Assembly (NCBI GenBank): GCA_026706595.1
Contig: JAPOYL010000011.1
Location: forward strand, 69,686 to 133,685
Reading direction: 5' to 3'
Origin: Gammaproteobacteria bacterium
GTDB lineage: Bacteria > Pseudomonadota > Gammaproteobacteria > UBA4575
Length of the DNA: 64,000 nucleotides
The notes below the pieces were generated by a model. That model ran no database searches, was not told the DNA's origin, and worked only from the letters and a program-made list of their open reading frames with translations. This document shows positions 5,718 through 41,106 of the stretch, piece by piece. Each line of letters opens with the position of its first letter. Within the stretch, counting starts at the first letter, position 1. The position numbers and the translations under genes are program-made.

Positions 5718-7126
5718 CATTCAACATCGGACATTTTGCAACCCGCAAAATCAAGCGCGTGCACTTCGTGGGTATCGGTGGTTCCGGCATGGGCGGCATC
5801 GCCGAGGTGATGGTGAACCTGGGGTATCAGGTATACGGCTCCGACATCCAGGAGAACGCGATTACGAAGCGCCTGTCAAAACTGGGCGCGACGGTTTACG
5901 GCCATCACGATGCCGGCAATGTCCGGGATGCCGACGTCGTGGTGATGTCAAGCGCGGTAGGAGAGGATAACCCGGAGATCGCCGCCGCCCATGAACGGCG
6001 CATCCCGGTCGTGCCCCGCGCGGAGATGCTTGCCGAACTGATGCGTTTCCGTTACGGCATCGCGGTGGCGGGCACCCATGGCAAGACCACCACGACGAGT
6101 CTGATTGCATCCATACTTGCACACGCCGATCTGGACCCGACCTTTATCATCGGCGGCCGTGTCAACAGTTTTGGAAGCCACTCGAAGCTGGGTGCCGGAC
6201 AGTACCTGGTTGCCGAGGCGGACGAAAGCGATTCCTCGTTCCTGTACCTGCAGCCGATCATGTCGGTCGTGACCAATATCGATTCGGATCATCTGTCCGC
6301 GTACGGGGGCGATTTCAACACCTTGCAGGACGCATTCTTGCAGTTTATCCATCACTTGCCCTTTTATGGGGTGGCCGTTTTGTGTATGGACGATGACACG
6401 GTCCGCGCCCAGTTGCCAAAGATCTCGCGCCCGTGTGTCACCTACGGCTTTTCGGACCAGGCCGATTACCGGATCACCGAAGTCGAGAAGTCTGCACTGC
6501 AGACAAAATTTGTCCTGCTGCGGCCCGGCCGGCAGGCCCCGGTCAGGTTCGTACTGAATCTTCTGGGCATTCACAATGTCCTGAACGCGGTGGCGGCAGC
6601 GATTGTCGCACTGCAGCTTGACGTCAAGGAAAACTGCATACAGTCAGCCTTCGAGAACTTTCAGGGCATTGCGCGGCGTTTTCAGGTCTACCCGCAGATA
6701 TCCATTAACAACCGGCATGTTCAACTGGTGGACGACTATGGCCATCACCCTGCCGAAATCGCCGCTACGATGACCACTGCACGGGATGCTTGGCCCGGGC
6801 GCAGACTGACCGTGCTGTTCCAGCCGCACCGGTATTCGCGCACACGGGACCTGTTCGACGATTTTGTACGGGTGCTGAACGAAGCAGATGTCCTGATGCT
6901 GTGTGAGGTCTATGCGGCCAACGAAGAACCCTTGGTAGGGGCTGACAGCTTGGCTCTGAGTCGTGCACTCCGTGCACGGGGCAAGCTTGACCCGATCCTG
7001 GTGAAGGACTTGTCCGACATCCAGGCCACGCTGGAGCATGTCTCGGAGGACCAGGATGTTCTGCTCACCCTGGGAGCAGGCAGCGTCGGGGGCATTGCCC
7101 AGCATCTGGGTGAGATTTTCGCGTGA
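5714..7126 (+). CDS. murC: UDP-N-acetylmuramate--L-alanine ligase MurC
   Basis: MTFNIGHFATRKIKRVHFVGIGGSGMGGIAEV N-terminus, GTHGKTTT P-loop. ATGA overlap with the murG stop. Track ORF 5354 is 5'-extended. Confidence 0.93.
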   Translation: MTFNIGHFATRKIKRVHFVGIGGSGMGGIAEVMVNLGYQVYGSDIQENAITKRLSKLGATVYGHHDAGNVRDADVVVMSSAVGEDNPEIAAAHERRIPVVPRAEMLAELMRFRYGIAVAGTHGKTTTTSLIASILAHADLDPTFIIGGRVNSFGSHSKLGAGQYLVAEADESDSSFLYLQPIMSVVTNIDSDHLSAYGGDFNTLQDAFLQFIHHLPFYGVAVLCMDDDTVRAQLPKISRPCVTYGFSDQADYRITEVEKSALQTKFVLLRPGRQAPVRFVLNLLGIHNVLNAVAAAIVALQLDVKENCIQSAFENFQGIARRFQVYPQISINNRHVQLVDDYGHHPAEIAATMTTARDAWPGRRLTVLFQPHRYSRTRDLFDDFVRVLNEADVLMLCEVYAANEEPLVGADSLALSRALRARGKLDPILVKDLSDIQATLEHVSEDQDVLLTLGAGSVGGIAQHLGEIFA

Positions 7127-7133
7127 CACGGAT

Positions 7134-8033
7134 ATGGAAGCGGTACACGACATCGAAATGCTGCGCGGGACGCTAGAAAGAAATGCCTCGCTGGCACGAT
7201 TCACCAGCTGGAAGGTTGGCGGTGTTGCCGATCTTTTGTACAGGCCCGCGGACGTGCAGGACCTGAGAAATTTTTTGGCAGGCCAGGCGCAGGATATGCC
7301 GCTGACCTGGTTGGGTGGCGGTACCAATGTGCTTGTACGTGACGGGGGCGTACGGGGTACGGTGATTTTGCTGCATGGCTGTTTGGGAGGGCTGGAGATT
7401 GCAGGCCCCGGCATGGTCCGGGCAGAGGCAGGTGCTGCCTGCGCCAAGCTGGCACGCTTTTGTGCAGATCAGGAGTTGCAGGGTTCCGAGTTTCTGGTAG
7501 GCATCCCCGGCACGGTCGGGGGTGCGCTGGCCATGAATTCCGGTGCCTACGGTCATGCGACCTGGGAATTCGTATCGCACGCGCAGACCGTGGACCGACG
7601 TGGCGAGCTGCGCACCCGGCCTTGCGATGATTTCAGGCCGGGTTACCGCACGGTTCAAGTACCCCGGGATGAGTGGTTTGTCGGGGCCGTGTTCCGGTTT
7701 GTCCCCGGAGACGCGTCGCAGGCGAGGGCCGTCATTCGTTCGCTGCTGGAACGGCGCAATGCAGACCAGCCCCTGGGGAATCAGAGTTGTGGCTCGGTGT
7801 TCAGGAATCCGGAGCAGGATCATGCCGCCCGGCTGATCGAGAGCAGTGGCCTGAAGGGTACCTGCATCGGCGGGGCGCAGGTTTCGGAGAAACATGCAAA
7901 CTTCATCATCAATCTGGGACATGCCACGGCCGGGGATATCGAGGAACTGATCTGGAAGGTGCATGCGACCGTGGAGACCAAGCAGGGCGTCACGCTGGTT
8001 CCCGAGGTCAGGATTCTGGGGGAAGTGCAATGA
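7134..8033 (+). CDS. murB: UDP-N-acetylenolpyruvoylglucosamine reductase MurB
   Basis: FAD-binding MurB motifs (SWKVGG, GGGTNVL, C-terminal MurB domain). Lies between murC and ddl. Confidence 0.9.
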   Translation: MEAVHDIEMLRGTLERNASLARFTSWKVGGVADLLYRPADVQDLRNFLAGQAQDMPLTWLGGGTNVLVRDGGVRGTVILLHGCLGGLEIAGPGMVRAEAGAACAKLARFCADQELQGSEFLVGIPGTVGGALAMNSGAYGHATWEFVSHAQTVDRRGELRTRPCDDFRPGYRTVQVPRDEWFVGAVFRFVPGDASQARAVIRSLLERRNADQPLGNQSCGSVFRNPEQDHAARLIESSGLKGTCIGGAQVSEKHANFIINLGHATAGDIEELIWKVHATVETKQGVTLVPEVRILGEVQ

Positions 8034-8947
8034 CGGACGTCTCGCGCTTTGGCAAGGTTGCGGTGCTGATGGGAGGGCCGTCATCGGAACGTGAAATCTC
8101 TCTCAGGAGCGGTGCTGCAGTGCTGGATGCATTGCAGGAGGCAAATGTGGATGCGACGGCAATTGATGTATCCGGTGATGTATTCGAGCGGTTGCGTGCC
8201 GGAAAATTTGACCGGGCCTTCATCGCGCTGCATGGATCCCTGGGCGAGGATGGCTGTATCCAGGGCGGGCTGGAGGTAATCGGGCTGCCGTACAGCGGCA
8301 GTGGTGTGCTGGCATCCGGGATCTGCATGAACAAGCGCATGACCAAGCAGATCTGGTCCGGGCGCGGCATCCCGACACCTGGATTCCAGGTCATCAAAGG
8401 CTCCGTCGATCCGGATGCGCTGGTTGCAGAACTGGGCTTGCCCATGATCCTGAAGCCCGTGTCCCAGGGTTCGAGCATAGGCATCACCAAGGTCGACACC
8501 CGGGAAGAGGTTGTGCCGGCGTGGAAGCACGCGTGCGATTTTGAGGACACGGTGATTGCGGAACAGTGGATCGAGGGCAAGGAATACACGGTAGCCGTAC
8601 TGGATGGTCAGGCACTGCCCGCCATCCGGCTGGAAACCCCGCGGACCTTCTATGATTTTGATGCCAAATACGAATCCGGTGACACCCAGTACCACTGTCC
8701 TTCCGGGTTGTCTGCCGCGCAGGAAACGGCAATCAAGGCACAGGTGCTGCAGGCCTTCGCTGCCACGGCGGCCTCGGGCTGGGGGCGCGTCGACCTGATT
8801 GTGGACAACCATGAACAGCCGTGGTTTCTGGAGATCAATACGGTCCCTGGCATGACAGACCATAGCCTGGTGCCGATGGCTGCCAAGGCACAGGGCATCG
8901 GCTTTGTCGAGCTCGTGCTCAGAATACTGGAGACTTCACTGGCCTGA
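8030..8947 (+). CDS. ddl: D-alanine--D-alanine ligase
   Basis: VAVLMGGPSSEREISLRSG, ATP-grasp motifs (ILKPVSQGSSIGI, WFLEINTVPGMT). ATGA overlap with the murB stop. Track ORF 7673 is 5'-extended. Confidence 0.93.
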   Translation: MTDVSRFGKVAVLMGGPSSEREISLRSGAAVLDALQEANVDATAIDVSGDVFERLRAGKFDRAFIALHGSLGEDGCIQGGLEVIGLPYSGSGVLASGICMNKRMTKQIWSGRGIPTPGFQVIKGSVDPDALVAELGLPMILKPVSQGSSIGITKVDTREEVVPAWKHACDFEDTVIAEQWIEGKEYTVAVLDGQALPAIRLETPRTFYDFDAKYESGDTQYHCPSGLSAAQETAIKAQVLQAFAATAASGWGRVDLIVDNHEQPWFLEINTVPGMTDHSLVPMAAKAQGIGFVELVLRILETSLA

Positions 8948-8948
8948 G

Positions 8949-9758
8949 ATGACTGCGCGAAAACGAAAGCATGCGAACAAAACACCCGTGTCACAAACGG
9001 TGCCCGGTTATTTTTCACTGCGCAGTGCATGGGATGTGCTGGTGATCGCCGTGCTGCTGGGTGTCGTGGCATATGGCGCATACTGGATTCGCACCCACCA
9101 CCCAGGTCTGCTGGCATGGCCGCAGATCCAGCAGGTCACGGTCGAGGGCGAGGTGCATGCCGATGACCGTGAGACCTTCAAGGAGATCGTAACCGCACGT
9201 GTCGCGAAAGGATTTTTCCGTATCCCCATGGGACGGCTGCAACAGGAACTGGCGGAGTTGCCCTGGGTCTACCGGGTCAAGGTCCGGCGCACCTGGCCCG
9301 CCACGCTGGAGGTCACGGTGTACGGGCAAGATCCGATTGCCCGCTGGGGCAAGACGGGACTGATGAATGTGTACGGGGGAATCTTTTTCCCGGAATCCGT
9401 GTCGGCATCCCATACGGCATTACCCATGCTGTACGGGGAAGAGGCTCGCGCCGCAGTGCTGGCCGGTATATTCGAACGCAACATGCGCAGGCTGGAGCCA
9501 TTGGGCCTACAGCTGCAGGGACTGTTCGAGGATGGTCGCCTGTCCAAGCATCTGGTGTTGTCCAACGGGGTCGTACTGGTCCTCGGGCATGGTGAGCTTG
9601 GCAAGAAAGTCACGCGTTTCATGACCGCTTACGAGGAGTACCTGTCTCCACACATGGAGCAAGTGAAGAAAATTGACCTTCGCTATACCAACGGTCTGGC
9701 AGTCGAGTGGAAAGATCCCCAACTGGCAGGAAACTTCAAGCTGGAACACAAGCTATGA
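8949..9758 (+). CDS. ftsQ: cell division protein FtsQ
   Basis: N-terminal TM anchor followed by POTRA and FtsQ domains. Conserved position between ddl and ftsA. Confidence 0.85.
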   Translation: MTARKRKHANKTPVSQTVPGYFSLRSAWDVLVIAVLLGVVAYGAYWIRTHHPGLLAWPQIQQVTVEGEVHADDRETFKEIVTARVAKGFFRIPMGRLQQELAELPWVYRVKVRRTWPATLEVTVYGQDPIARWGKTGLMNVYGGIFFPESVSASHTALPMLYGEEARAAVLAGIFERNMRRLEPLGLQLQGLFEDGRLSKHLVLSNGVVLVLGHGELGKKVTRFMTAYEEYLSPHMEQVKKIDLRYTNGLAVEWKDPQLAGNFKLEHKL

Positions 9759-27677: not shown

Positions 27678-30284
27678 ATGCGAATTGAAAAGCTCACCGC
27701 AAAATTCCAGCTTGCCCTGCAGGAGGCGCAGTCGATGGCCGCAGGCCGCGAGCACCAGTTCATCGAGCCGGTGCATCTCATGCTGGCGATGCTGGTCCAG
27801 GAACACAGTTCCGTGGCTGCTGTGCTGCAGCGCGCCGGCACCGATGTGGGACAGGTCAGGCAGCGCTGCGAGCAGGCGGTGCAGGGACTGCCCAAGGTGT
27901 CCGGCACGGCGGGTGAAATCCACCTCTCCAATACTCTCGGAAACCTGCTCAACATCACGGACCGGCTGGCCCAGCAGCACGGGGATGAATACATTGCCTC
28001 GGAAGTGTTCGCGCTTGCAGCACTCGAGGACCAGGGGGAGTTGGGCCGGATCCTGCGCGAGGCCGGTGCGGACAAGTCCGCCGTCGCGGCTTCCTTCAAG
28101 TCGATGCGTTCCGGGGAAAATGTCACCGACCCGAATGCCGAGGATACCCGCCAGGCGCTGGGCAAGTACACGGTGGACCTGACCGCCGAGGCCCTGAAAG
28201 GCAAGCTCGATCCGGTGGTCGGGCGCGATGATGAAATTCGCCGTGCGATCCAGGTGCTGCAGCGGCGCACCAAGAACAACCCAGTGCTGATCGGTGCACC
28301 CGGCGTTGGAAAAACCGCGATCGTGGAAGGCCTGGCACAACGCATCGTCAACGGGGAAGTGCCCGAGGGCATCAAGAACAAGAAGCTCCTTTCCCTGGAC
28401 CTCAGCGCCCTGATTGCCGGTGCGAAGTTCCGCGGCGAATTTGAAGAGCGGCTGAAAGCCGTGCTCAAAGAACTTTCCCGGCAGGAAGGACAGATCATTC
28501 TGTTTATCGACGAACTGCACACCATGGTGGGTGCCGGCCGGGCGGAGGGGGCCATGGACGCGGGCAACATGCTCAAGCCTGCGCTTGCCCGCGGAGAACT
28601 TCACTGTGTCGGCGCGACCACCCTGAATGAATACCGCCAGTACATCGAGAAAGATGCAGCGCTTGAGCGGCGCTTCCAGAAAATCCTGGTCGATGAACCG
28701 GGCGTGGAAGATGCGATCGCAATCCTGCGCGGCCTGAAAGAGCGCTACGAGACCCATCACGGGGTGGATATCACCGACCCTGCCATCGTCAATGCCGTCA
28801 CCCTTTCGCATCGCTACATCTCCGACCGGCAGCTGCCGGACAAGGCCATCGACCTGGTCGACGAGGCCGCCTCGCGCATCCGCATGGAAATCGACTCCAA
28901 GCCGGAGTCCATGGACCGGCTGGACCGCAAGCTGATCCAGCTCAAGATCGAACGGGAAGCGCTGAAAAAGGAATCCGATGACGCCTCCAGGAAGCACCTG
29001 GACGAGCTGGAGGCGGAAATTGCCCGGCTGGAGAAGTCCTATGCCGACCTCGAGGAGGTTTGGCGCTCGGAAAAAACGGTCCTGCAAAGCTCCCGGGAAA
29101 CCAAGGAGGCGCTGGAGCAGGCGCGCATCGAACTGGATGCCGCACACCGGGCCGGGGATTTGGCAAAAATGTCGGAGATGCAGTACGGGCGCATCCCCGA
29201 GCTGGAAAAACAGTTGCGTGAGGCGGCCAGTGCGGGCAACGAGGAGAACAGGTTGCTGCGCAACAAGGTGACAGATACTGCCGTCGCCGAGATCGTCTCG
29301 CGCTGGACGGGGATTCCGGTTGCAAAGATGCTTTCCGGAGAGCGCGAGAAGCTGCTGCGCATGGAGCAGGAGTTGCGTGCACGGGTCATTGGCCAGGATG
29401 AGGCGGTACGGGTAATCTCCGATGCCGTTCGAAGATCAAGAGCCGGGATCTCCGATCCGCGTCGCCCGAATGGCTCGTTCCTGTTCCTGGGTCCGACCGG
29501 GGTCGGCAAGACCGAGTTGACCAAGGCCCTGACCGAGTTCCTGTTCGACAACGAGGATGCCCTGATCCGCGTCGACATGTCCGAGTTCATGGAGAAGCAT
29601 TCCGTGGCCCGGCTGATCGGCGCCCCTCCGGGATACGTGGGGTACGAAGAGGGTGGCTACCTGACCGAGGCCGTACGTCGCAAGCCCTACAGCGTGGTGC
29701 TGATGGATGAAATCGAGAAGGCACATCCGGACGTGTTCAATATCCTGTTGCAGGTGCTCGATGACGGGCGCCTGACCGACGGGCACGGCAACACCGTGGA
29801 CTTCAAGAACACCGTGATCGTCATGACCTCCAATCTCGGCAGCGATGTCATCCAGGGGTTTGCTTCGTCAGAGGAGGAAGGTGCGGACCAGTACGAGGAG
29901 ATGAAGGCAGCGGTAATGGCCCTGGTGAACACCCGGCTGAAACCGGAGCTCATCAACCGCATCGATGACTGCATCGTGTTCCATTCGCTGTGCAGGGAAC
30001 ACATTCGCGCGATCACGGAAATCCAGCTGGGTCATCTGCAAAGGAGGGTGGCAGACCGGGATATTACCCTGGACTACTCCGAGGCTGCCCTGGACAAGCT
30101 TGCCGAAGCCGGTTTCGATCCCGTGTACGGGGCTCGCCCCCTGAAGCGGGCCGTGCAGGAAATGGTGGGAAATCCGCTGGCCCAAGCCCTGCTTGCCGGT
30201 GAGATCCGGCCTGGCCAGACCGTCCGGGTCGATGTACAGGGGGACGGGCTGGGCTTTGCCGCCACGAACCCCATGGCCGCCTGA
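27678..30284 (+). CDS. clpB: ATP-dependent chaperone (disaggregase) ClpB
   Basis: Two AAA+ modules ([18 protein letters not shown]), a middle coiled-coil domain, 868 aa. Track ORF 27402 is 5'-extended. Confidence 0.97.
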
Positions 30285-30552
30285 CAAGGCGGTAGTGCCT
30301 CTCAGGAACTGGAAAACGGGGTGTCCGGCGGTTGAGCGGGTCGGTTTTGGGAGCCTGCAGAAGTCAGGCTGGCCCAGGGACGACAGCGGTGGCAAAACCG
30401 AGTGCTACAGGTGATTTTATGGTGTGCAAATAGGTAAACGATTGCGTACTGTTGGCCGATCTGGTAAGGCACCCCAAAAATAAACATAAACATTTGAATT
30501 TAATACACTTTTTAAGGTGATGCCTGCACCTTTCATGCAAACATCGGAGTAT

Positions 30553-30581
30553 TTGCAGTTACAGAATCATGCTTGTATAAT
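30553..30581 (+). promoter_or_regulatory. candidate sigma70 promoter with extended -10, for the alkB-like gene
   Basis: TTGCAG at 30553-58, a 17-nt spacer, then TGnTATAAT at 30574-81, in the AT-rich region after clpB. A 5'UTR of about 130 nt leads to the GGAGG RBS at 30699. Confidence 0.5.
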
Positions 30582-30714
30582 CGAGCGTATCTAATGCCCC
30601 CGAATGGGCGAGTGTCCGTGTGGATATACAGGTCATGAGAGAGGGCAACGGAAAAAGATATGCTAAACAATTAAATTTGTAGTTAACCGAGCGAATGCTG
30701 GAGGTGCATATACA

Positions 30715-31869
30715 ATGATGAAACTTATGATTAACGCAAGGTACTGGTTCGCCCCGATCCTGATCATCGTCACGATGTTCGGAGTACTGATGGGCGGCAT
30801 GTTCGTATGGGTCGGACTGCTGCTGTTGGGCGTTGGTATCGTGATCGACACAGCCATGAAGTGGCAAAGTTCCGGTGCAGGCTTTGACCGGAGCGGAGAA
30901 ACGATGGGTGTGCCCTGGCTACAGAACAGCGTGATGTACGTCATGTTGGGAGTATTCGTACTCCTGCAACTGGCGCTCGCATGGCGTATCTACCAGTACG
31001 TCAATGGTGTCCCGCTGAGTGCCGGGTTCGACCATGTCATGTTTGGATTCCTGCCTTATATGAATGGAATCTCCGGACTTGACCTGATCGGTGCCACGAT
31101 ATCCTCAGGCATCTTTGCCGGTATTGGTATTATTTATGGACATGAACTGAGCCATACGAAGGGATTTGCCTTTGCCATTTCCCGCTCAATGATGGCGCTG
31201 AGTGGCAAAGCTCACTTCAGCTATGCACATGTCTATAACCACCATCTGGAACTGGCACACGAAGATGATCCTGCTACGTCACCGCGTGGAAGAACCATCT
31301 ACCGACACTATCCATTGGCCGGAATCGGGCAGTCCCGCTTCCTGTACAGAATGGAGAAGCAACGTCTGGAGCGTCTGGGCAAATCCTGGTTCACATGGGA
31401 AAATCGCTGGCTGCGTGGCTATGCCATGAGCCTGCCGACCCTGTTCCTGTTCTGGTTTGCCGGCGGCTGGATTGGTATTGCCTGCCTGTCAGTTGTATGG
31501 CTGATCTCAAACTTTGAGCTCGAAGCCCTCAACTACATGGAGCATTACGGCTTGATTCGTGAGAAGGGACAGCCGATTGACTATCGTCATTCATGGGACA
31601 ACGCAACAGCGTTCACCAGCTGGTTCTTCATCGAGATTGGCCGTCAGGCAGATCACCATGACCGTGGTGAAACCCACTTCTGGGAGCTGGATGACGTAGG
31701 TGCTCCTAACACCGGATGGGGTTACTTCACCTTGTTTGCCATCGCGCTCATACCGCCGCTTTACCACATGTATATGAAGAAGGAACTGGCAAAGTGGGAC
31801 AGAGAGCGTGCCTCAGAGGGCGAGCGTGCGATTGCTGATCGCCTCAACCGTCAGGTTGGTTACGCTTAA
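30715..31869 (+). CDS. AlkB-family integral-membrane non-heme di-iron hydroxylase (alkane 1-monooxygenase-like / fatty acid desaturase superfamily)
   Basis: His boxes in AlkB order: HELSHTK, HVYNHH followed by DPATSPRGRT (AlkB has EHNKGHH...DPATSRMGE), NYMEHYGL, and RQADHH (the first His of box 3 is replaced by Gln). N-terminal TM helices. Strong RBS. Confidence 0.8.
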   Translation: MMKLMINARYWFAPILIIVTMFGVLMGGMFVWVGLLLLGVGIVIDTAMKWQSSGAGFDRSGETMGVPWLQNSVMYVMLGVFVLLQLALAWRIYQYVNGVPLSAGFDHVMFGFLPYMNGISGLDLIGATISSGIFAGIGIIYGHELSHTKGFAFAISRSMMALSGKAHFSYAHVYNHHLELAHEDDPATSPRGRTIYRHYPLAGIGQSRFLYRMEKQRLERLGKSWFTWENRWLRGYAMSLPTLFLFWFAGGWIGIACLSVVWLISNFELEALNYMEHYGLIREKGQPIDYRHSWDNATAFTSWFFIEIGRQADHHDRGETHFWELDDVGAPNTGWGYFTLFAIALIPPLYHMYMKKELAKWDRERASEGERAIADRLNRQVGYA

Positions 31870-31892
31870 GCTCTGATTTCGGAGAACGCAAA

Positions 31893-31943
31893 TTTTTAGC
31901 ATAGTCATGTGCCCGGGCTTCGTCCCGGGCACATGCGCTAAAA
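31893..31943. terminator. bidirectional rho-independent terminator-like hairpin
   Basis: TTTTT, then ATGTGCCCGGG cttcgt CCCGGGCACAT (11-bp GC-rich stem), then AAAAA. Located directly after the alkB-like stop. Confidence 0.55.
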
Positions 31944-32378
31944 AGAAGCGTTGAATGACGGGGGAAAGCCGGGAACAAAAACAAGGAGAAGATCCCGGCG
32001 AATAACACCTGCGGTCGATAAGAAGAAACTGGACCACGGTGTCGATGAACGACAGGCTGATCTAAACGTTCTGTATGCGAGTCGCACTGTGGAAAGTCCA
32101 GGCAGGAAAGAATAACAATTTGTAATTATCGGTCTTGGGGCCGACACGGCAAGAATCAAGACGGTAAACTTCAATCCTGTACCCAGTGGGCACAGGAGCA
32201 GAGGGGCTCGGGGTCTGGAACCCTGGCATTTACAGATATCAGGAGGACGCTATAAACGTTATGTGCGTGTAGCCGCAGGGACGGCTTATTCTATCCTGAC
32301 TGTTTTTACTACCCTGGGTGACCGGCTTAGGTAACCCCGGACATAACAAACAACTCCAAACATAACGAGGTATAAACA

Positions 32379-33059
32379 ATGTTAGGTGATCATTTGGCGG
32401 ACAAAATGAAATTTTATGGGAACCCCTCATGCCTGCGCAGCGCGATGTGCATGTTCACCGCTGCCGAGAAGGGCGTGGACTTAGAGGGCCACTTTGTCGA
32501 TCCCAATGGAACGGGTGCGGCTGACGTTCAGGCGCTTGCGCCGCATGGCTTGTTGCCTGTACTGAAGGACGTCGATTTCGTCGTTTGCGGACAACAAGGC
32601 ATCATGTCCTATCTGGACGACAAGGGCTTTGGTCCATCCCTGATTCCCCGTAATGGCGTCGTGCGTGCAATCCACTACATGTGGAATCAGCTCGCCACCG
32701 ATATTGCACTGGACGCAGTTGCTGGATTGATGTCCGGTACTGGGGATGCTGCAGCCGCATCGGGGTGCTTCGATCTTCTGAATTCGCATCTGGCATCCAA
32801 GAGCAATCCTGCGCTGCGCGGTGATTTCATTTGTGGAGCCTTCAGTCTCGCAGATATCCACTGGGCTGCCCTGGCACAAGGCTGCATGCTTGCCGACAGC
32901 AGCGATGTGGTGGAGTCCAGACCGGCCGTTGCAAAATGGTGGGGCCTGGTCAAGTCGCATCCCAGCACGAGCAAGGAAAACATCCGCGGCTATGATGTGC
33001 TTCCGACCAAGACGGACATCAGCGGCAACAGCCTGCGTGGTGTCACGATTAATGTCTAG
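32379..33059 (+). CDS. glutathione S-transferase-fold protein, paralog 1
   Basis: Thioredoxin-like N-domain (KFYGNPSC...GLLPVLKDVDFVV.GQQGIMSYL) and a helical C-domain (GAFSLADIHW, KWW). RBS GAGG. Confidence 0.7.
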   Translation: MLGDHLADKMKFYGNPSCLRSAMCMFTAAEKGVDLEGHFVDPNGTGAADVQALAPHGLLPVLKDVDFVVCGQQGIMSYLDDKGFGPSLIPRNGVVRAIHYMWNQLATDIALDAVAGLMSGTGDAAAASGCFDLLNSHLASKSNPALRGDFICGAFSLADIHWAALAQGCMLADSSDVVESRPAVAKWWGLVKSHPSTSKENIRGYDVLPTKTDISGNSLRGVTINV

Positions 33060-33354
33060 AAGGGCTGGGCCTCTTACTATTCATTAATCACGGGTTTCCT
33101 TGAAAGCGGACCTGCAGGGCGGCATCGTCCGGTCAGGTCCCGGGGAAACACGAGCAAGTTATTATGGATTGACCTTGGTGGGAATGCCGGGGTTGGTCGT
33201 GAAGCGACGATGCCTTGAGTCCCTTGGCAGAGGGACCCGGGTGGATGGCGCTTCAAGAAAAGAATTTACGGGCCACAGGGTTTTCAGATTACTCTGGGGG
33301 ACTCCGGTTGCATTATAAATACTCGAATTTAATCTGAGTCAGGAGGTGTGACTA

Positions 33355-33561
33355 ATGTATTCATTCAGAGCAATCGTTGTGATGCTGATATTTTCTGCGG
33401 CCGTCTACTACGGCATGGGTATGCTGGGTCTCACTGCAGCCCATTCCGATCCCTTGATGGCGCTTGCCGGAGCAGTGGTCCTGCTGGTGGCTTTGGTCAT
33501 CAACGTATGGATCTATCTCAAGCTCGCTGGCGAGCATCCGTTTAAATGGTTCAAGGAGTAG
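33355..33561 (+). CDS. small two-TM membrane protein (68 aa), unknown function
   Basis: Strong RBS AGGAGGTG 7 nt upstream. Two predicted TM helices. Followed by a strong hairpin. Confidence 0.55.
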   Translation: MYSFRAIVVMLIFSAAVYYGMGMLGLTAAHSDPLMALAGAVVLLVALVINVWIYLKLAGEHPFKWFKE

Positions 33562-33627
33562 AATCCTCCTACTAAAGGAAGCCATTCGTAGCGCGCAAGC
33601 GCGATCCTAATAAAAAGTGTCAGGCAA

Positions 33628-33666
33628 CTGGACCTGGAGCAAACGAATGTTTGCTCCAGGTCCAGC
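33628..33666 (+). terminator. strong stem-loop (17-bp perfect inverted repeat), probable terminator/attenuator
   Basis: CTGGACCTGGAGCAAAC gaatg GTTTGCTCCAGGTCCAG. No canonical U-tract follows. Confidence 0.45.
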
Positions 33667-33739
33667 CAGCCGTTCTGTAAAAAACCGGACAAAAGGGCGC
33701 CTACAGCTCGAGTCTGTCATAGCAGCTACATAACTGACA

Positions 33740-34408
33740 ATGGGACTATTTTCACGCAAAAAGAAACCTGCCGAGAAGGTTCGTCTACTCGGTCATCCTG
33801 GACATGCCGATACCTGCAAGAGCCTGTACCTGGGTGCTGAAAAAGGGGTTCAGCTGGATCCCGAACTCATTGACATCCGAAGCGAACAGTATCCAGATGA
33901 GACACTGCGGTCAGTGTCACCTTTTGGCAAGCTTCCTTGCCTGGTTGAGGGAGAGGTGGTCACCTCCGGTATTGCGGCCGTATTGCCTTACCTGGATGTG
34001 CGTGGCGGCGGGCAACCGCTGACACCCCGCAAGGCACAGCATTTGGGCACCCAGAATTACTGGATCGAGGTGGGTGCACAGCAGGTGCAGCCAAGGATCG
34101 AGGCCCTGGTGGATGGCCAGCCTGCAGAGGAAGCCAAAGATGGATTGCAAAAGATCTTTGATGGCATGGATGCACATCTGCAAGGCAAGGAGTGCATAGT
34201 TGGCGCATTTTCCTTTGCAGATGTCCATTGGGTGGCCTACCTGCACCTGTTGCATGTAGCAGGCCAGAACAGCCTCATCGACGAGCGGCCCAACCTGAAA
34301 GCCTGGTTCGAGCATATGAAGGTCCGCAAAGGCAGTCACGGCATTGCCTATACGGCTATGCCGTCGGCAGCGGACATTCAGCGAGGCGGATTTGCGAACG
34401 CCGCCTGA
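33740..34408 (+). CDS. glutathione S-transferase-fold protein, paralog 2
   Basis: GKLPCLVEGEVV.TSGIAAVLPYL, GAFSFADVHW, KAWFEHM. Same architecture as paralogs 1 and 3. Confidence 0.65.
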   Translation: MGLFSRKKKPAEKVRLLGHPGHADTCKSLYLGAEKGVQLDPELIDIRSEQYPDETLRSVSPFGKLPCLVEGEVVTSGIAAVLPYLDVRGGGQPLTPRKAQHLGTQNYWIEVGAQQVQPRIEALVDGQPAEEAKDGLQKIFDGMDAHLQGKECIVGAFSFADVHWVAYLHLLHVAGQNSLIDERPNLKAWFEHMKVRKGSHGIAYTAMPSAADIQRGGFANAA

Positions 34409-34454
34409 ACGGCAGAGCACGTTGGTCTGACACCCCTTTGGAGCCACAACGAAT

Positions 34455-35237
34455 ATGAGTGATTTGTTTGAGTTCGGCCGTGCAGCGGACCCGACGGCGA
34501 GCAGCCAGTACGGGGCAAGCGGCGATATGAAAAAAACCCAGTACGTGCTGCAGCTGCTGGGATTCCCGGGGGATGCGGGAACGCTGAAATGCTTGGTCAC
34601 GGCGGTGGAAGTGGGCATGGAGACTGATTGCGGGATTCTCGATATCACGGCAGGTGCCCATGAGTCGGGTGACTACCTGCAGGTCTCGCCACTAGGCTTG
34701 GTGCCTGCACTCAAGGAAGCCGATTACATCGTCACCGGAGAGTTGGGTATCATGAGCTATATCGAGGCCCGGGGGCTGGGCAAGCGCCTGCCACCCAAGA
34801 ATGCAGGCCTGCTGGCTGCCCAGAACTACTGGGGCGATCTTGCCTGCAGCGAGGCCAAACCGCATGTGGAGTCGATCGTGCAGCAGCGCATTTACGCACC
34901 GATGCAGGGCAAAGACTCTGATGGTGTGGCGGTGGACCAAGCCCGTTCGGGGCTTTCCGCGGTGCTGGATGCCCTGGACGGACAGCTTGCCGGCAAGGAA
35001 TTCATTATCGGAGACTATTCATTCGCTGATATCCACTGGACAGCTTACGTTCATCTCCTGTATGAGGCGGGAGAAGGGGATTTGGTTGATTCCCGCGCCA
35101 ATATCAAGGCCTGGTTTGACCGTATCCGGACACACAAGAGCTATTGCGGGCAGGACATCGTGGCATATGACCTGCTTCCGAAGCTTGAAGGCATAAAAAA
35201 CAAGCAGTTGCACTCGGTGGAAGTGTCAGACTATTGA
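34455..35237 (+). CDS. glutathione S-transferase-fold protein, paralog 3 (with N-terminal ~25-aa extension)
   Basis: LGLVPALKEADYIV.GELGIMSYI, GDYSFADIHW, KAWFDRI. RBS GGAG. Confidence 0.7.
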   Translation: MSDLFEFGRAADPTASSQYGASGDMKKTQYVLQLLGFPGDAGTLKCLVTAVEVGMETDCGILDITAGAHESGDYLQVSPLGLVPALKEADYIVTGELGIMSYIEARGLGKRLPPKNAGLLAAQNYWGDLACSEAKPHVESIVQQRIYAPMQGKDSDGVAVDQARSGLSAVLDALDGQLAGKEFIIGDYSFADIHWTAYVHLLYEAGEGDLVDSRANIKAWFDRIRTHKSYCGQDIVAYDLLPKLEGIKNKQLHSVEVSDY

Positions 35238-35270
35238 TTATCGAGTACCGGTGGGGAAGAATGACGGATC

Positions 35271-35711
35271 ATGTGGGGATCATCTAAAAAACAGGACCGT
35301 CAGATCAAGGGTGTTACCGGTGCCATTACACCTTTTGTCACGGATACGCTGGGCAGGCTGGACCCGGAAGATCTCGAGGAAGCCTCGATCAAGCGCAAGT
35401 ATGCGATTTACTACATCTACGGTGCCGTTTTATACTTGGCCGAGTATGATGACCTGGGCAAGGACGTCAAGGCGGTACTGGTCACCAATATCCTGGGCGA
35501 GCAAATGAGCGTCGATCAGGCGGCGATTGACAAACTGCCGGTGACCGAGGACCATGCAGATGCTGTGAGGGAAACGCAGTTCATGATTGAGGGGGCCAGT
35601 GCACTGCGCAACTGGCTGACCACAGGGGAACGCGAAAAGAACGCCGCGTACCTGAAGGAGTTGCTGGATAACCCGGACTGTATAACCGGGGAGAGTGAAA
35701 CAGAGCACTGA
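35271..35711 (+). CDS. hypothetical acidic soluble protein (146 aa)
   Basis: ORF sits 33 bp after GST paralog 3 and is probably co-transcribed. No motif recognised. Confidence 0.45.
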   Translation: MWGSSKKQDRQIKGVTGAITPFVTDTLGRLDPEDLEEASIKRKYAIYYIYGAVLYLAEYDDLGKDVKAVLVTNILGEQMSVDQAAIDKLPVTEDHADAVRETQFMIEGASALRNWLTTGEREKNAAYLKELLDNPDCITGESETEH

Positions 35712-35808
35712 ATCGATTGAATTTTAGGCAGGCCTGGGTATTCGCATAAATGATATTCAGGCGTTATGATAAGTTTAGCGGCAAAAAACAATTAAAAAGG
35801 AGGCGTGT

Positions 35809-35916
35809 ATGTCTGATGGTGGAGGAAATGATGCCATGGTATTCGTGGTCGCAATGGTCTTCGGCGTTGCTGTGATCGTACTCACGTTATACCTGGCTGG
35901 CTTAATTCCTATGTAA
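35809..35916 (+). CDS. small hydrophobic peptide (35 aa, single TM), not in ORF track
   Basis: atg at 35809 preceded by AAAAGGAGG at a 7-nt spacing. Translation MSDGGGNDAMVFVVAMVFGVAVIVLTLYLAGLIPM, then TAA. Confidence 0.5.
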   Translation: MSDGGGNDAMVFVVAMVFGVAVIVLTLYLAGLIPM

Positions 35917-36605
35917 AAAATGGTTCGGGAGCAGAGGGGCTCCTGATCCGTATTCAATTTGCGAAAGGGGGGTTGCAACTTATCCCAGGCTCGTCAAATC
36001 GGCAGACCTGCCGATTTGACCCGTGGGGGCGCAGCCCGTCTCCCTTTCCCGCCCTATAAATCTTTCAGGTTCTTACAGAAAATCTGCCCGGGATTCAGGT
36101 ACAAATACCCGAGACTTTTCCTTTATGCCTGCATATCTGATCATGTTTTGATCACTTTAGAGGGATGATGGGCTGAAGTCCTGGATCAGGGAGTAAAAAA
36201 ACATCGATTCGTGAGGTACGCCTTCAGGTCATGATTCAGTCTACGGGGTACCATTTGCCTTGATTTCACGGTAATATTCGTTACACTTATATGACAAGTA
36301 CGCAGCACCTATAGTGATCCGACCGAAAGGGGCAGGAATAGGCGGCTGTAGAGACATAAGAATCAGGCTGCTCAAAGCCGCGATAGAGAGGAAAAAGGGG
36401 GATCTGGATTGACACTGACAGCAATATGCAATGCCAGCCTCAATTCAATCTGTACAACTTACTTCTGTCAAAACCAAATCGTCAGCCACCTGTAAATCAT
36501 ACGACTAGCGGCTGACATGAGAATAAGAAATTCAAACAAAATTTTAGTTAGCAAAATTCATCGTAACCAATCAAACAAGACTACTTATAACCGGGAGGGT
36601 AACCA

Positions 36606-38132
36606 ATGAGAGAAGTTTTTAATCGGTGGTTAGCAATTGCGTTGCTGGCATCGCTGGCCATTTCAGGGACTGCCTATGCAGGCCCGTACGGCTACGATCT
36701 GCACAACGTGCTGGCTCCACGTTCAGCGGGTATGGCGGGTACCAGCATTGCCAAGCCTCTGGATAACGTGTCGGCAATCTTTGGTAACCCTGCCGCATTG
36801 ACGGACTGGACGGGAACGGAGTTCACGTTTGGTGCCACTTACTACAAGCCCGAAGTCAGACTGGATCACTCGGGGGCCTTCAATCTTCCGACCTATGCAG
36901 GTTCGGTACCTGATGCTGTCTTTGGTGAATTTGCGGTACCGGGGCATTCTAAAGAAGGAGGTACTGCCATCGTATGCGGTAACCCAAACGCGTTCTGTAT
37001 TCCCGATGCAGCATTTGACGACGCGGTCAACGGCAACGAGGGCTACATCGTACCGCAGGTGGGTGTGACACAGGATCTGCGGCCGCTCGGCTTGCCCGCT
37101 GTACTGGGCGCGGGACTGACCGCTGTTTCTGGTATCGGTGTGGAGTTTCGTCATGTTGAAGAAACCCTGGGACTGGGCGCGGAGTTCATCGTCCTGGGCG
37201 CGAACTTCTCCCTTGGCTGGGAGCTGAATGAGCGGGTATCTATTGGTGGTGCAGCTACGATAACGTATGCCTACTTGGACCTTGGCTTAGCAGCGACTTC
37301 AGGCGTAACTCATGACACCGGCATGCGTGGAACACTAGGCTTGACTTACGAAGATATCTTGCCAGGTACCCGGTTGGGCGTGTTCTACATGACGGAACTA
37401 CAGCATGTGTTTGACGACATTATTGCCGTACCGCCTGATGATTATGCGCCAGCGCAAGGTGACGCATTCGAAGGATATGGTGACGATGCACCGGTTCGCT
37501 ACGCCTCCATTCCTATTGAGGAGCCGCGTACGATTGGTATCGGCATCTCCAATGAGACCTTCATGGACGGCAACCTGCTGGTTGCAGCCGATGTGATGTG
37601 GAAGAACTGGGAAGAGGCCGACTTCTGGGGCGATGTCTACGAGGACCAGATGGTCTACAGCATCGGTGCCCAGATGAAGATGGGCAACTGGCGTTTCCGT
37701 GCCGGGTATGGCTATGCCGATGATCCGACGGATCGAGATGCACAGGGCGTCAAGGGACTACCCTATGTCTGCTCTTCAGCAACGAGATGTAATGTAATCC
37801 CTGTAGGCAGTGGGAATGACAGCATATTGCATCTTGGGCAATCAGTCCTTGAGTACCTGCAGGCTTCACAGACCGAGGTGATCTATCGCCACCGCGCCAC
37901 GCTAGGTGTGGGGTACATGGGCTTCCTGGCTCCGTTCCTGAACATTGACGGCCATGTAGGCGTGCAGTTCAAGGAGCGCAACCACTACAGTGCGGGTCCT
38001 GTCCAGACAGCAGGCGTTGTTAGTGCTAATGGGGTAGACCTAGGTCCTTTTGATGGATCAGCAACAACCACGGCCGCAGATGTCTGGTCTTGGCATGCAG
38101 GCTTTGCTCTGACCTGGAACTTCCAGTACTGA
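36606..38132 (+). CDS. FadL/TodX-family outer-membrane hydrophobic-compound transporter
   Basis: Signal peptide ending AYA. N-terminal hatch motif IFGNPAAL (the NPA motif of FadL/TodX). Alternating beta-strand pattern. C-terminal aromatic WNFQY. Confidence 0.75.
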   Translation: MREVFNRWLAIALLASLAISGTAYAGPYGYDLHNVLAPRSAGMAGTSIAKPLDNVSAIFGNPAALTDWTGTEFTFGATYYKPEVRLDHSGAFNLPTYAGSVPDAVFGEFAVPGHSKEGGTAIVCGNPNAFCIPDAAFDDAVNGNEGYIVPQVGVTQDLRPLGLPAVLGAGLTAVSGIGVEFRHVEETLGLGAEFIVLGANFSLGWELNERVSIGGAATITYAYLDLGLAATSGVTHDTGMRGTLGLTYEDILPGTRLGVFYMTELQHVFDDIIAVPPDDYAPAQGDAFEGYGDDAPVRYASIPIEEPRTIGIGISNETFMDGNLLVAADVMWKNWEEADFWGDVYEDQMVYSIGAQMKMGNWRFRAGYGYADDPTDRDAQGVKGLPYVCSSATRCNVIPVGSGNDSILHLGQSVLEYLQASQTEVIYRHRATLGVGYMGFLAPFLNIDGHVGVQFKERNHYSAGPVQTAGVVSANGVDLGPFDGSATTTAADVWSWHAGFALTWNFQY

Positions 38133-38152
38133 TTAAAGTCAGTAGTCTTTTG

Positions 38153-38187
38153 GAAAAAAGGGGTGGCATATGCCACCCCTTTTTTTG
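38153..38187. terminator. rho-independent terminator (bidirectional)
   Basis: AAAAAA, then GGGGTGGCATATGCCACCCC (a perfect 20-nt palindromic hairpin), then TTTTTTTG. Confidence 0.85.
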
Positions 38188-38327
38188 TTTCTGACCATAT
38201 TCCCAAAAGTTCCATTTGAGAATACAGGGACTAGTCCCTATCAGAGCCTTGTACAGTCCAAATTATTGGAATTTCAAATTTGATCATAGACATGTCATAT
38301 CAGCTTTTTCTAACAACACCCGTTTCA

Positions 38328-38374
38328 TTTCTGTATAATTCATCTGGTTGATCAATCGTTTCTGTATACAGAAA
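38328..38374 (+). promoter_or_regulatory. candidate promoter (-10 TATAAT at 38334-39) plus perfect 16-bp palindromic operator TTTCTGTATACAGAAA (38359-38374)
   Basis: Direct repeat TTTCTGTATA at 38328 and 38359. The second copy forms the perfect palindrome, 52 bp upstream of the precursor ATG. Confidence 0.5.
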
Positions 38375-38426
38375 TTGTGCCTTGCTCCGCAGGACACACA
38401 TAACAATTGTTGGAGGTTTTATAACG

Positions 38427-38807
38427 ATGGATAAGAAACGTCGTGATTTTAATAAGCTGATGGTGGCTGCAGCAGCTGGATTGATGGCTGGAAGCCAGAC
38501 GGTTGCCTTGGCGGGTCACCCGGGCCATGAAGGTTGTCCGAAGCATAGCTGTAAAGGCCAGAATGAATGCAAGGGCAAGGGTGGCTGCAAGTCAAGCGAC
38601 AACGGTTGCGCAGGCAAGAACTCATGCAAGGGCAAGGGTGGTTGTGATCCAGCCCACACGTATGAGAAGCATGCCTGTAAGGGCCAGAATGCCTGCAAAT
38701 GCCAGGGTGGCTGCAAGTCAGGTGACAACGGCTGTGCCGGTAAAAATTCATGTAAAGGCAAGGGTGGCTGCCAGCTTCCAGTTGACCCCAGCCACATGGA
38801 AGGATAA
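38427..38807 (+). CDS. Cys-rich exported precursor-like protein (bufferin/HvfA-like, DUF2282-type), 126 aa, 13 Cys
   Basis: GGAGG RBS. Twin-arginine signal KRRDFNKLMVAAAAGLMAGSQTVALA. Two 34-aa repeats, each with 6 Cys in a CKGQNxCKGKGGCKSxDNGCAGKNSCKGKGGC pattern. Immediately upstream of a DUF692/DUF2063 pair. Confidence 0.75.
   Translation: MDKKRRDFNKLMVAAAAGLMAGSQTVALAGHPGHEGCPKHSCKGQNECKGKGGCKSSDNGCAGKNSCKGKGGCDPAHTYEKHACKGQNACKCQGGCKSGDNGCAGKNSCKGKGGCQLPVDPSHMEG
38544..38771 (+). repeat. tandem intragenic repeat (2 units of ~102 nt, period ~126 nt) encoding the 6-Cys modules
   Basis: Near-identical nucleotide blocks (tgcaagggcaagggtggctgcaagtca...). They explain the overlapping repetitive ORF-track translations at 38503-38835 on both strands. 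Confidence 0.8.
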
Positions 38808-38967
38808 GCAGTACCTAGCAACTCACTTGTTGTAAAGTTCTGACATTTCCAAAAACGGTTTGAGCATCAACAGGGCTACCGAGTACGGTATGCCCTGTTG
38901 ATTGCTTGAATCCTTTCTCTACTGGTAACATGCTTACCAGGCAAATCTGATTCACAAGGTGGTTTCT

Positions 38968-39819
38968 GTGTCTGTAAAAAACCGCTGGAACTTCCCTGAC
39001 CTTGGACTTGGAATCGGGCTTCGCACAGTCCATTTCAATCACGTTCTTGAACACTGGCCCAAGGTGGACTGGTTCGAGATCCTGTCCGAGAATTTCATGA
39101 ACACGGAAGGAAATCCCGTACGTGTGCTGGACCAGATTGCAGAACGCTACCCGATTGTCATGCACGGGGTTTCCATGTCGATCGGCAGCACGGACCCCAT
39201 CGATTTTGACTACTTCACAAGGCTGAAGGCCCTGGCCGAACGGGTGAACGCCCACTGGCTTGGAGACCATGTCTGCTGGACCGGGGTGCATGGGAAAAAC
39301 GGCCACGACCTCTATCCGCTGCCCTACAATGAGGAATCCTTGGCCTTTCTAGTGGACAGGATACGCACCGTCCAGGATTTCCTGGAGCGTCCCCTGATCC
39401 TGGAGAACCCCTCGACCTACCTGGCCTTTGCAAATTCCACCATGCCCGAAGAGGAATTCCTGGCCCGCATGGCCGAGGAGTCGGACTGCGGACTGCTGCT
39501 GGACGTCAACAACGTCTATGTCACCTGCCGCAACCACGGACTGGATTCCATGGCTTATCTGGATGCGCTCCCCTATGACCGGGTGGTGCAGATTCATCTG
39601 GCCGGGCATACCGACAAGGGTACGCACTGCATCGACACGCACAACGGCCGGGTCATTGACCCGGTGTGGGACCTGTATGCCGAGGTTCAGCGCCGCGCCG
39701 GAAACCGTGCCACGTTGATTGAGTGGGATGCCGACATTCCTTCGTTTGAAGAGGTCCATGCCGAGGTTCTGAAGGCGGCGCAATTCCGCCAGATGACCGA
39801 ACTGCGCCATGCCTCGTGA
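38968..39819 (+). CDS. DUF692 family protein (MbnB/BufB/HvfB-like multinuclear-iron TIM-barrel enzyme)
   Basis: Xylose-isomerase-like TIM barrel with conserved His/Asp/Glu ligand pattern (HGVSMSIGS..., HVCWTG, ENPSTY, QIHLAGH, LIEWD). GTG start with AAGGTGG RBS. The track ORF starts 9 nt upstream. Confidence 0.8.
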
Positions 39820-40663
39820 CGACTCGCGGCTGGAAAGCCTCGAGCAATGGATGTATTTGGTCGTAAGCCACCCTGAGGGTGCCAAGGCCGGAGTCGAAGC
39901 AAGTTCCAAGCTGGATAGTGACGCGGCACACGACCTTGAACAAACCGTCCTGCCTTCCGATAAACTGACTCCGCTGGAGTGCGTCTCGGTCTATGCCGAC
40001 ATGTACTTCTGGCGATTTATCGAGATTATGGCCGGGGAATACCCGACCGTGCAGCACATCCTTGGAGAGGAGTTGTTCAACCAAGTAGTCAGGGATTACA
40101 TTGCACATCATCCCTCGACGCACTACAACCTGAATCGCCTGAGCATCAAGTTCCCGCATTACCTGGAAAAGGAGGTCACGGATCTTCCGCACCAGCCTTT
40201 TGTGGTTGCAATCGCCACGGTTGAACGTGTCATGGAGGATGCCTTCGATGACCCGCATCGGGAGAAGATCTCCCCGGAGGCTATCCAGAGCATCCCGGGG
40301 GAGCAATGGGGCGACATCCGGCTGCAGTTCAACCCGGCCCTGTATCTACTGGAACTGGATTATCCGGTCAATGACTATATGACGGCGGTGAATGAAAACC
40401 GCCATATGGACATCCCGCAGGCCGATAAGACATTTGTCGTGGTGTATCGTTGCGATTACACGGTCTGGCGTGAAGACCTGGACTATGAAAGCTACCTGCT
40501 GTTATCGCGGCTTAAGGACGGGGAGTCCTTGGGTGAAGCCCTAGAGAGTTGCACCCTGCAAGAAGGTGTTGACGCCGACAAGATTACGGCCAGCTTGGGT
40601 GAGTGGTTTCAGCGATGGACTGCCCAGGAATTCTTCTGCGGTCTTGAAATCGATTCTGATTGA
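39809..40663 (+). CDS. DUF2063 family protein (MbnC/BufC/HvfC-like partner)
   Basis: Overlaps the DUF692 stop by 11 nt, suggesting translational coupling. About 280 aa, consistent with the obligate DUF692-DUF2063 pairing. Confidence 0.7.
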
Positions 40664-40776
40664 CTCCAGCCTGAACCTGTAAAAGATGTAAGGGCCAAGA
40701 ATGGCCTGAGCCTGATAGGTGGTCGAAGTGCAAGCCCACCAGAGGCTACTAGTTGGGGTCAGTAGAGTTCGGTGTG

Positions 40777-41106
40777 TTATGGGATGCAGCGAAAGACCGC
40801 AAAGGTCTGCTGCCCGCGATCCACTTTCGACATCGGTACGACCGTGTCACCGCCCATATGGATTGCACTGTTGCGTGCCAGACGCTGTAACTGGTGTGCA
40901 ATCGTGGAAGGACTTTTGGGTACGAGACCCAAGTATTTCTCGCCGATACTGACCGTTGCCCCGCCATTTTTCTGGCAGTTTTTTACATCATCGGGGCTTA
41001 GCACGCGTGCTTTTTCCCCTTCAATGGTCAGTTCGATGGTTTCACAGGAGGCCAGGACAAATAAGGTCGCAGTTACCAGGACTGCAATTCGAAGTTTGGA
41101 AATCAT
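40777..41106 (-). CDS. small lipoprotein (109 aa), unknown function (RcsF-like size and Cys pattern)
   Basis: Signal peptide with lipobox LASC. No reliable family assignment. Confidence 0.5.
   Translation of the reverse strand: MISKLRIAVLVTATLFVLASCETIELTIEGEKARVLSPDDVKNCQKNGGATVSIGEKYLGLVPKSPSTIAHQLQRLARNSAIHMGGDTVVPMSKVDRGQQTFAVFRCIP

Follow-up and report, generated by a model that had tools for sequence, protein, structure and literature searches.

The comparative evidence firmly supports the identification of a 35-codon open reading frame (ORF), at positions 35809-35916 on the forward strand of the window (the whole 64,000-nucleotide stretch of DNA analyzed here), as a real protein-coding gene under purifying selection. 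Its product, MSDGGGNDAMVFVVAMVFGVAVIVLTLYLAGLIPM, is predicted to be a small inner-membrane protein with a single transmembrane (TM) helix, translated from a strong Shine-Dalgarno (SD) site of its own and forming a fixed unit with the 146-residue protein encoded directly upstream; we consider it probable, with moderate confidence, that it serves as the membrane-embedded partner of that protein, which appears to be its most likely role. The peptide defines a previously undescribed family, lacking a database model though of a familiar kind, namely the small single-TM proteins, and this family is carried by uncultured marine Gammaproteobacteria inside a cluster of alkane-hydroxylase-like and glutathione-transferase-like (GST-like) genes. 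Small membrane proteins are systematically under-annotated, and the present family brings with it a clear candidate partner.

A 35-codon gene and its protein family

The ORF begins with an ATG at 35809 and ends with a TAA at 35914-35916, and is identical in position and sequence to one reported in a preliminary description of this DNA, which had singled it out as a single-TM peptide with a consensus ribosome-binding site. That site, AAAAAGGAGG, is indeed present on the same strand at 35794-35803, 5 nt before the start codon, the spacer between the last G of its GGAGG and the ATG being CGTGT; the 7-nt spacing originally given reflects a counting convention, and the distance is near optimal by either count. 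Also as first described, the peptide contains one hydrophobic helix, seen as a single hydrophobic stretch covering residues 10-33 (best 19-residue Kyte-Doolittle mean 2.9), and a Gly-rich N-terminus, MSDGGGND. A chance occurrence of such an ORF is excluded: when every ATG ORF of 25-59 residues on both strands of the window (n = 566) was scored for an SD-like 5-mer 4-10 nt upstream and for a 19-residue Kyte-Doolittle mean of at least 2.0, the former was found in 7 and the latter, transmembrane-grade stretch in 11, and the 35-residue ORF alone combined GGAGG with such a stretch. A split gene or a readthrough product of the 146-residue gene was likewise ruled out by the different frame, the variable and unconserved spacer of 20-109 nt, and the peptide's own SD site.

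The description of the peptide as unannotated holds relative to a 60-residue ORF cutoff but not for the public gene callers, which call the exact 35-residue product in 30 blocks of a public collection (21 contigs of these were read), and its relatives are named "hypothetical protein" in JGI/IMG. Since it is called, if unnamed, in public collections, the peptide is already known to gene callers and simply uncharacterized. No family match to it was recovered in Pfam, NCBIfam, PADLOC or PHROG, and scans of NCBIfam and Pfam with all 13 members of the family alignment (A4) yielded best E-values of 0.03-0.5, for single members and far below cutoffs. The NCBIfam and Pfam profiles of curated small-membrane-protein families (KdpF, CydX, MgtU, EYxxD and others) also gave no significant match to the peptide.

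The coding status of the ORF follows from an excess of synonymous changes in its frame, together with the retention of frame, start and SD site in orthologous loci. The peptide is identical in 16 loci that were examined, part of them fetched via the peptide and part independently via the neighboring gene, while the 146-residue neighbor is 87-100% identical there. Ten distinct DNA versions of the ORF vary at 11 sites through at least 14 substitutions, 13/14 of which are synonymous in its frame, where about 27% would be expected at random (P about 5e-7); the sole non-synonymous change among the 14 is the conservative N7S of locus L019. Read in the other frames, the same substitutions are synonymous in 1/14 cases in four of them and in 10/14 in the wobble-complement frame, and a codon-periodic substitution pattern is seen in relatives in the ORF's frame only. 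Across the 26-codon ungapped core of 11 diverged members, pS ranges from 0.30 to 0.91 while pN is at most 0.28, and dN/dS lies between 0 and 0.38 wherever it can be estimated, with synonymous sites near saturation. Frame, start, SD site and sequence are all kept down to about 45% identity, clearly contrary to the refuting outcome named in the preliminary description, a reading frame not conserved in homologous loci. Selection on the amino-acid sequence extends along the whole helix.

A representative search with the single 35-residue sequence returned two clusters only, and recovered a 40-residue relative, P0010, whose loci (L020-L025) show the gene order 68-residue protein, GST, GST, 138-residue protein and peptide, followed by a convergent gene for a 725-residue protein. 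The wider family was uncovered by using the better-conserved GST-like protein 3 (GST3; 34455-35237, forward strand) as an anchor for collecting loci, which gave 72 metagenome loci in addition to genome loci, and by a profile scan for peptide homologues over all six-frame segments of these, which detected the peptide in many further loci. The resulting 15 distinct diverged sequences, of 30-43 residues, are unified by M1, a polar GGN(N/D) N-terminus, the motif M-[VI]-F-[VI]-[TV]-A-M-x-x-G and a second motif, L-[YW]-L-[AS]-G. All 15 start with ATG and are preceded, at 5-9 nt, by an SD-like purine-rich motif (GGAGG, GAGGA, GAGG or GGGG), apart from which their upstream spacers of 20-109 nt are unalignable. 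Within the AMxxG motif, which has small-xxx-small spacing, M16 and G19 are invariant, and A15 and the helix-end aromatic residue are nearly so; a small-xxx-small motif and an aromatic at the helix end, conserved in this way, are typical of helix-helix packing. The peptides of loci L102 and L106, MSGNNDGVVMKTAMFVGLVVIAVAVILAVL and MPDQDDDLVKKVAMAVGAVLIIIAIVLGVM, retain an acidic N-terminus and the AMxxG motif.

In several respects the family resembles KdpF, CydX, AcrZ and MgtS/MgtU, which share with it the small size (30-43 residues in the present family), a single TM helix, an SD site of their own, a fixed position beside one partner gene, conservation over the hydrophobic face and the ease with which they are missed by length cutoffs. 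Unlike these, the peptide shows no sequence relation to them and almost no charged residues, and its constant neighbor is a soluble helical protein of 146 residues rather than a polytopic transporter or oxidase.

The two-gene unit with the 146-residue protein

The upstream partner (35271-35711, forward strand) is confidently modeled as an all-helical protein (pLDDT 88, pTM 0.85) with no predicted TM segment. It matches no known family or fold, and a PDB search recovered neither a structural nor a sequence relative, which makes it a confident model standing apart from the solved structures. YxYGAxxYLAxYD and MxEGAxALR mark its conserved surface. The peptide gene lies on the same strand directly downstream of the 146-residue gene in 36/36 testable loci, a count that rests on about 15-20 independent, phylogenetically related lineages, with a gap of 20-109 nt between stop and ATG; among the loci that can be tested, the peptide is seen only where the 146-residue protein occurs. 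In five other loci with the 146-residue gene only, the DNA ends within 92 nt of that gene, and in the lone locus with the peptide only, the sequence begins 64 nt upstream of the peptide. Both proteins are missing from 62 related loci with GST3 homologues.

The gene 3' of the peptide varies between lineages, being FadL-like in the window's clade and in L037, the convergent 725-residue gene in L020-L025, a globin in L105, and PpoB2/DUF2182 in L102 and L106. In the last two loci, the pair is bounded by DUF1326 on one side and PpoB2/DUF2182 on the other, at a distance from GST3 and from any intact AlkB gene; PpoB2 we take to be a tyrosinase-operon gene, and the literature found under this name concerned Marinomonas mediterranea oxidases only. 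No peptide accompanies the most distant relatives of the 146-residue protein (L103 and L104), whose genes are followed after 7 nt by a convergent one, indicating that this protein can exist alone. With these two exceptions, the two genes form a fixed unit that is independent of the other neighbors, including the downstream gene and AlkB. A search for natural fusions of the 146-residue protein to a TM tail found none, P0202 being a chimera with an unrelated C-terminus.

The adjacency in 36/36 loci, taken together with the 62 loci that have neither protein, suggests that the peptide is probably a partner of the 146-residue protein rather than a general subunit of the AlkB-like enzyme. As neither of the two matches a known family or fold, the functions that we infer for them are drawn from gene context, and a physical interaction between them and a role in the pathway of the cluster are proposed on these grounds. 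In the family members that carry basic residues (L040, L041, L102, L105 and L106), every K/R lies N-terminal of the helix and none C-terminal, and the charged residues of the C-tails are D/E only. By the positive-inside rule, this distribution suggests an N-in/C-out topology, in which the GGN(N/D) segment would lie in the cytoplasm alongside the 146-residue protein; the version in the window lacks positive charges altogether, and its probable topology is taken from that of its homologues. The peptide would thus be translated from its own strong SD site and inserted as one TM helix, with its N-terminus probably cytoplasmic. The AMxxG and LYL(A/S)G faces of the helix would pack against another copy of the peptide or against another membrane protein of the cluster, while the short polar N-terminus, by contacting the 146-residue cytoplasmic protein, would bring it to the membrane. 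A hydrophobic substrate is presumably processed there by the AlkB-type monooxygenase, the 68-residue protein and the GST-like proteins. On this reading, the peptide would be a membrane partner or anchor of the 146-residue protein, within a module accessory to the AlkB-like/GST-like system.

The AlkB-like/GST-like cluster and its 68-residue protein

The cluster is large and uncharacterized, and is carried by Sedimenticola, Candidatus Thiodiazotropha and Thiogranum as well as by uncultured Gammaproteobacteria whose chromosomes are small (about 1.85-1.97 Mb); the named metagenome-assembled sources of GST3 homologues are Candidatus Thiodiazotropha, Thiohalocapsa and Thiogranum. A literature search on it returned nothing specific. 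In the window, all of its genes lie on the forward strand, starting with a homologue of the AlkB-type membrane di-iron monooxygenases (30715-31869), which belongs to the FA_desaturase family (PF00487, 87 bits; 8SBB, E = 3e-28; 8F6T, E = 2e-25). This is followed by GST-like protein 1 (GST1; 32379-33059), the 68-residue two-TM protein (33355-33561), GST-like protein 2 (GST2; 33740-34408), GST3, the 146-residue protein and the peptide, and then by an outer-membrane channel of the FadL/TodX family (36606-38132), which occupies the position 3' of the peptide in the window's own clade. The core present in most loci with GST3 homologues comprises the AlkB-like protein, the 68-residue protein, GST2 and GST3. 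In fuller versions this core is joined by genes for a Fer2-FNR reductase, a Fer4 ferredoxin and a truncated globin, and by an acyl-CoA-dehydrogenase-like gene accompanied by those of a PAS histidine kinase and a LuxR-type regulator.

The AlkB homologue (with its match to 8SBB) and the FadL/TodX channel recall the AlkB/XylM systems with their FadL/XylN-type channels, and the Fer2-FNR reductase and ferredoxin in the clusters of relatives recall the XylA-like reductase of such systems. Unlike these, the window's lineage has neither reductase nor ferredoxin in the 64 kb, and tblastn likewise recovered no globin and no acyl-CoA-dehydrogenase-like, kinase or regulator gene there (E > 0.005). The intervals 31870-32378 and 33060-33354 are non-coding gaps in the window, at the places where L032, L037 and L105 have the ferredoxin and the Fer2-FNR reductase. 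Despite the absence of these genes, the AlkB-like, GST-like and small proteins of the window are intact and under selection. To our knowledge, neither the three GST-like proteins nor the 68-residue protein, the 146-residue protein or the 35-residue peptide are known from characterized AlkB/XylM systems.

The preliminary description had also noted the 68-residue two-TM ORF with its ribosome-binding site, AGGAGGTG, and this too is present as described, so that the cluster encodes two small membrane proteins, one with a single TM helix and one with two. Its further idea, of direct binding of the peptide to the AlkB-like monooxygenase as an accessory subunit or regulator, fares less well and now appears rather unlikely. 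KdpF, CydX and AcrZ bind large membrane partners directly, and in the main clade the peptide and the AlkB homologue do share one co-oriented cluster; in L102, no more than about 10 kb separates the pair from the regulators and the GST1 end of a cluster of this type, and the conserved small-xxx-small motif would suit packing against a polytopic partner. However, most of the 62 GST3-homologue loci that lack the peptide, including that of the cultured Sedimenticola thiotaurini (L026), retain the AlkB-like gene, the 68-residue gene and GST2, whereas in L106 and L102 the pair adjoins DUF1326 and PpoB2, and AlkB is either missing from the vicinity or reduced to a remnant. These two observations weaken a direct accessory role; of the original proposal, the single-TM small protein is supported, and the link to the oxygenase, as stated, is not.

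AlkB is tracked instead by the 68-residue protein, whose gene follows the AlkB-like gene or the reductase wherever an AlkB-like gene was detected, in dozens of diverse loci. As it tracks these genes and the peptide does not, the 68-residue protein emerges as the better, and a strong, candidate for a small accessory subunit of the AlkB-type enzyme. No family model matches it; its sequence contains a conserved HSDPL...PF[KR]WF, and it also adjoins DUF1326 in L106. Matching the small proteins to the large ones, that is, the 68-residue protein to AlkB and the 35-residue peptide to the 146-residue protein, narrows the experiments needed on the function of the cluster.

A more speculative extension, to which we assign a low probability, is that the peptide, the 146-residue and 68-residue proteins and the three GST-like proteins are all subunits of one membrane-bound AlkB-type di-iron monooxygenase assembly, in which thiol conjugation would be coupled to the oxidation of a hydrophobic substrate; several of the GST-like proteins and the reductase have an M-x-G-F/L-F-x-K-K-K N-terminus in common. 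Such an assembly would represent a previously undescribed enzyme architecture, widespread among marine sulfur-oxidizing and symbiotic Gammaproteobacteria, and retained in the reduced genome of the window's lineage without a reductase in the cluster.

Several otherwise unrelated soluble proteins of the cluster share an N-terminal start of the form M-x-G-[LF]-F-x-[KR]-K-K, which may represent a common membrane-targeting or docking tag. Examples are seen in GST2 (33740; MGLFSRKKK), in the reductases of L026 (6317; MFGFLKKK) and L032 (about 7809; MFGAFKKK), and in P0211 (MGFFSRLFGGK) and P0212 (MGFFKGLFSK). A second, rearranged version of the supercluster is present in L102, a relative with 5.18 Mb (8639-9093 and 7113-8405), where a FadL-like gene, a decayed N-terminal fragment of the AlkB-like gene, a gene for a 121-residue protein, DUF1326, the 146-residue homologue, the peptide and PpoB2 are followed by two tandem copies of the acyl-CoA-dehydrogenase-like, kinase and regulator trio.

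Flanking DNA elements and other readings of the ORF

The 97-nt spacer after the 146-residue gene contains a promoter-like site on the forward strand, TTCGCA-18-TATGAT (35741-35770, its TATGAT at 35765-35770), which is weak evidence at 9/12 matches; promoter-like sites are no more numerous in the region than expected by chance, and this one is kept in the close clade but not in distant relatives. A forward-strand stem-loop lies 4 nt after the stop codon of the peptide (35920-35951), and its pairing is kept in L004, L005 and L006 through G-U/A-U/G-C changes; a hairpin is found at the same place after the peptide in L017 and L018. It is possible that this element, which has no clear U tract, is a terminator or a 3' stabilizer. 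Further downstream is a perfect 13-bp palindrome, GTCAAATCGGCAG-AC-CTGCCGATTTGAC (35993-36020), within a strongly folding 3' region (35961-36052, z = -3.95). It is complete, and at this site only, in 15/18 matching loci, a set that includes duplicate retrievals of the same contigs, and is not a dispersed repeat. One arm only is found in L005, L013 and L017; that of L013 is displaced and lies on the minus strand. The palindrome region could be an operator of the FadL-like gene or a 3' RNA element, and an Rfam scan of 35000-37000 recovered nothing meaningful.

The structured 3' region bears on a further reading, very unlikely in our estimation, under which the peptide damages membranes as the toxin of a type I-like toxin-antitoxin pair, or is a toxin that the 146-residue protein neutralizes. 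The peptide is comparable in size and hydrophobicity to TisB, Hok, Ldr and Ibs, being short and very hydrophobic with a strong SD site, and besides the conserved structured region, the convergent gene 25 nt downstream in one clade could supply antisense transcription. Unlike these toxins, the peptide is syntenic in an operon-like cluster and no conserved antisense element was found with it: its synteny inside a metabolic cluster is strict across lineages, it is present in a single copy per locus in loci of up to 20 kb that were examined, fixed after the 146-residue gene, and beyond the close clade neither 3' nor antisense sequence shows conservation. Consensus scans, themselves weak evidence, located neither a minus-strand promoter-like site at the ORF nor an Rfam match, and the defense and phage profiles of PADLOC and PHROG gave no significant matches. 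Type I toxins of such kind also usually have a basic C-terminus, which the peptide does not.

The strongly structured gap of 690 nt that separates the ORF from the FadL-like gene in the window might likewise suggest a regulatory leader peptide, or a spacer-borne ORF, controlling that gene. This is highly improbable and largely refuted by the change of downstream gene between lineages, as the peptide sequence is conserved in front of four different genes, one of them convergent, and is under amino-acid selection along the entire helix, which is not required of a leader peptide. Least credible of all is that the ORF specifies the precursor to a peptide that is secreted or modified (a bacteriocin or RiPP), with a possible tie to the bufferin genes 2.5 kb downstream. 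The small size, the Gly-Gly-containing N-terminus and the MNIO/bufferin cluster at 38427-40663 speak for it; against it, Cys residues, a signal peptide and a leader of the usual length are all lacking from the peptide, and the bufferin cluster, which encodes a BufA2-like precursor of its own, is absent beside the peptide in L004, L020-L025, L102, L105 and L106.

The bufferin-type RiPP cluster at 38427-40663 is complete: its Cys-rich repeat precursor is BufA2-like over two matched stretches, its MNIO maturase BufB scores 357 bits in NCBIfam (cutoff 310), and an HvfC/DUF2063 partner is encoded as well. Most close relatives have this cluster, which is missing or replaced in L004. Strain-level differences are also seen beside the conserved peptide: in L006 (6832-8372) the FadL-like gene is split into pieces of 102 and 241 residues, and in L002 (8689-9516) a TIR_2/Y4lF gene is inserted after FadL. 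The G+C content falls from about 0.60-0.66 at 22-30 kb of the window to 0.47-0.60 across the AlkB-like/GST-like cluster (30001-41000). In most relatives this cluster is located between clpB and proS, which argues that it is a stable part of the lineage and not a recent island.
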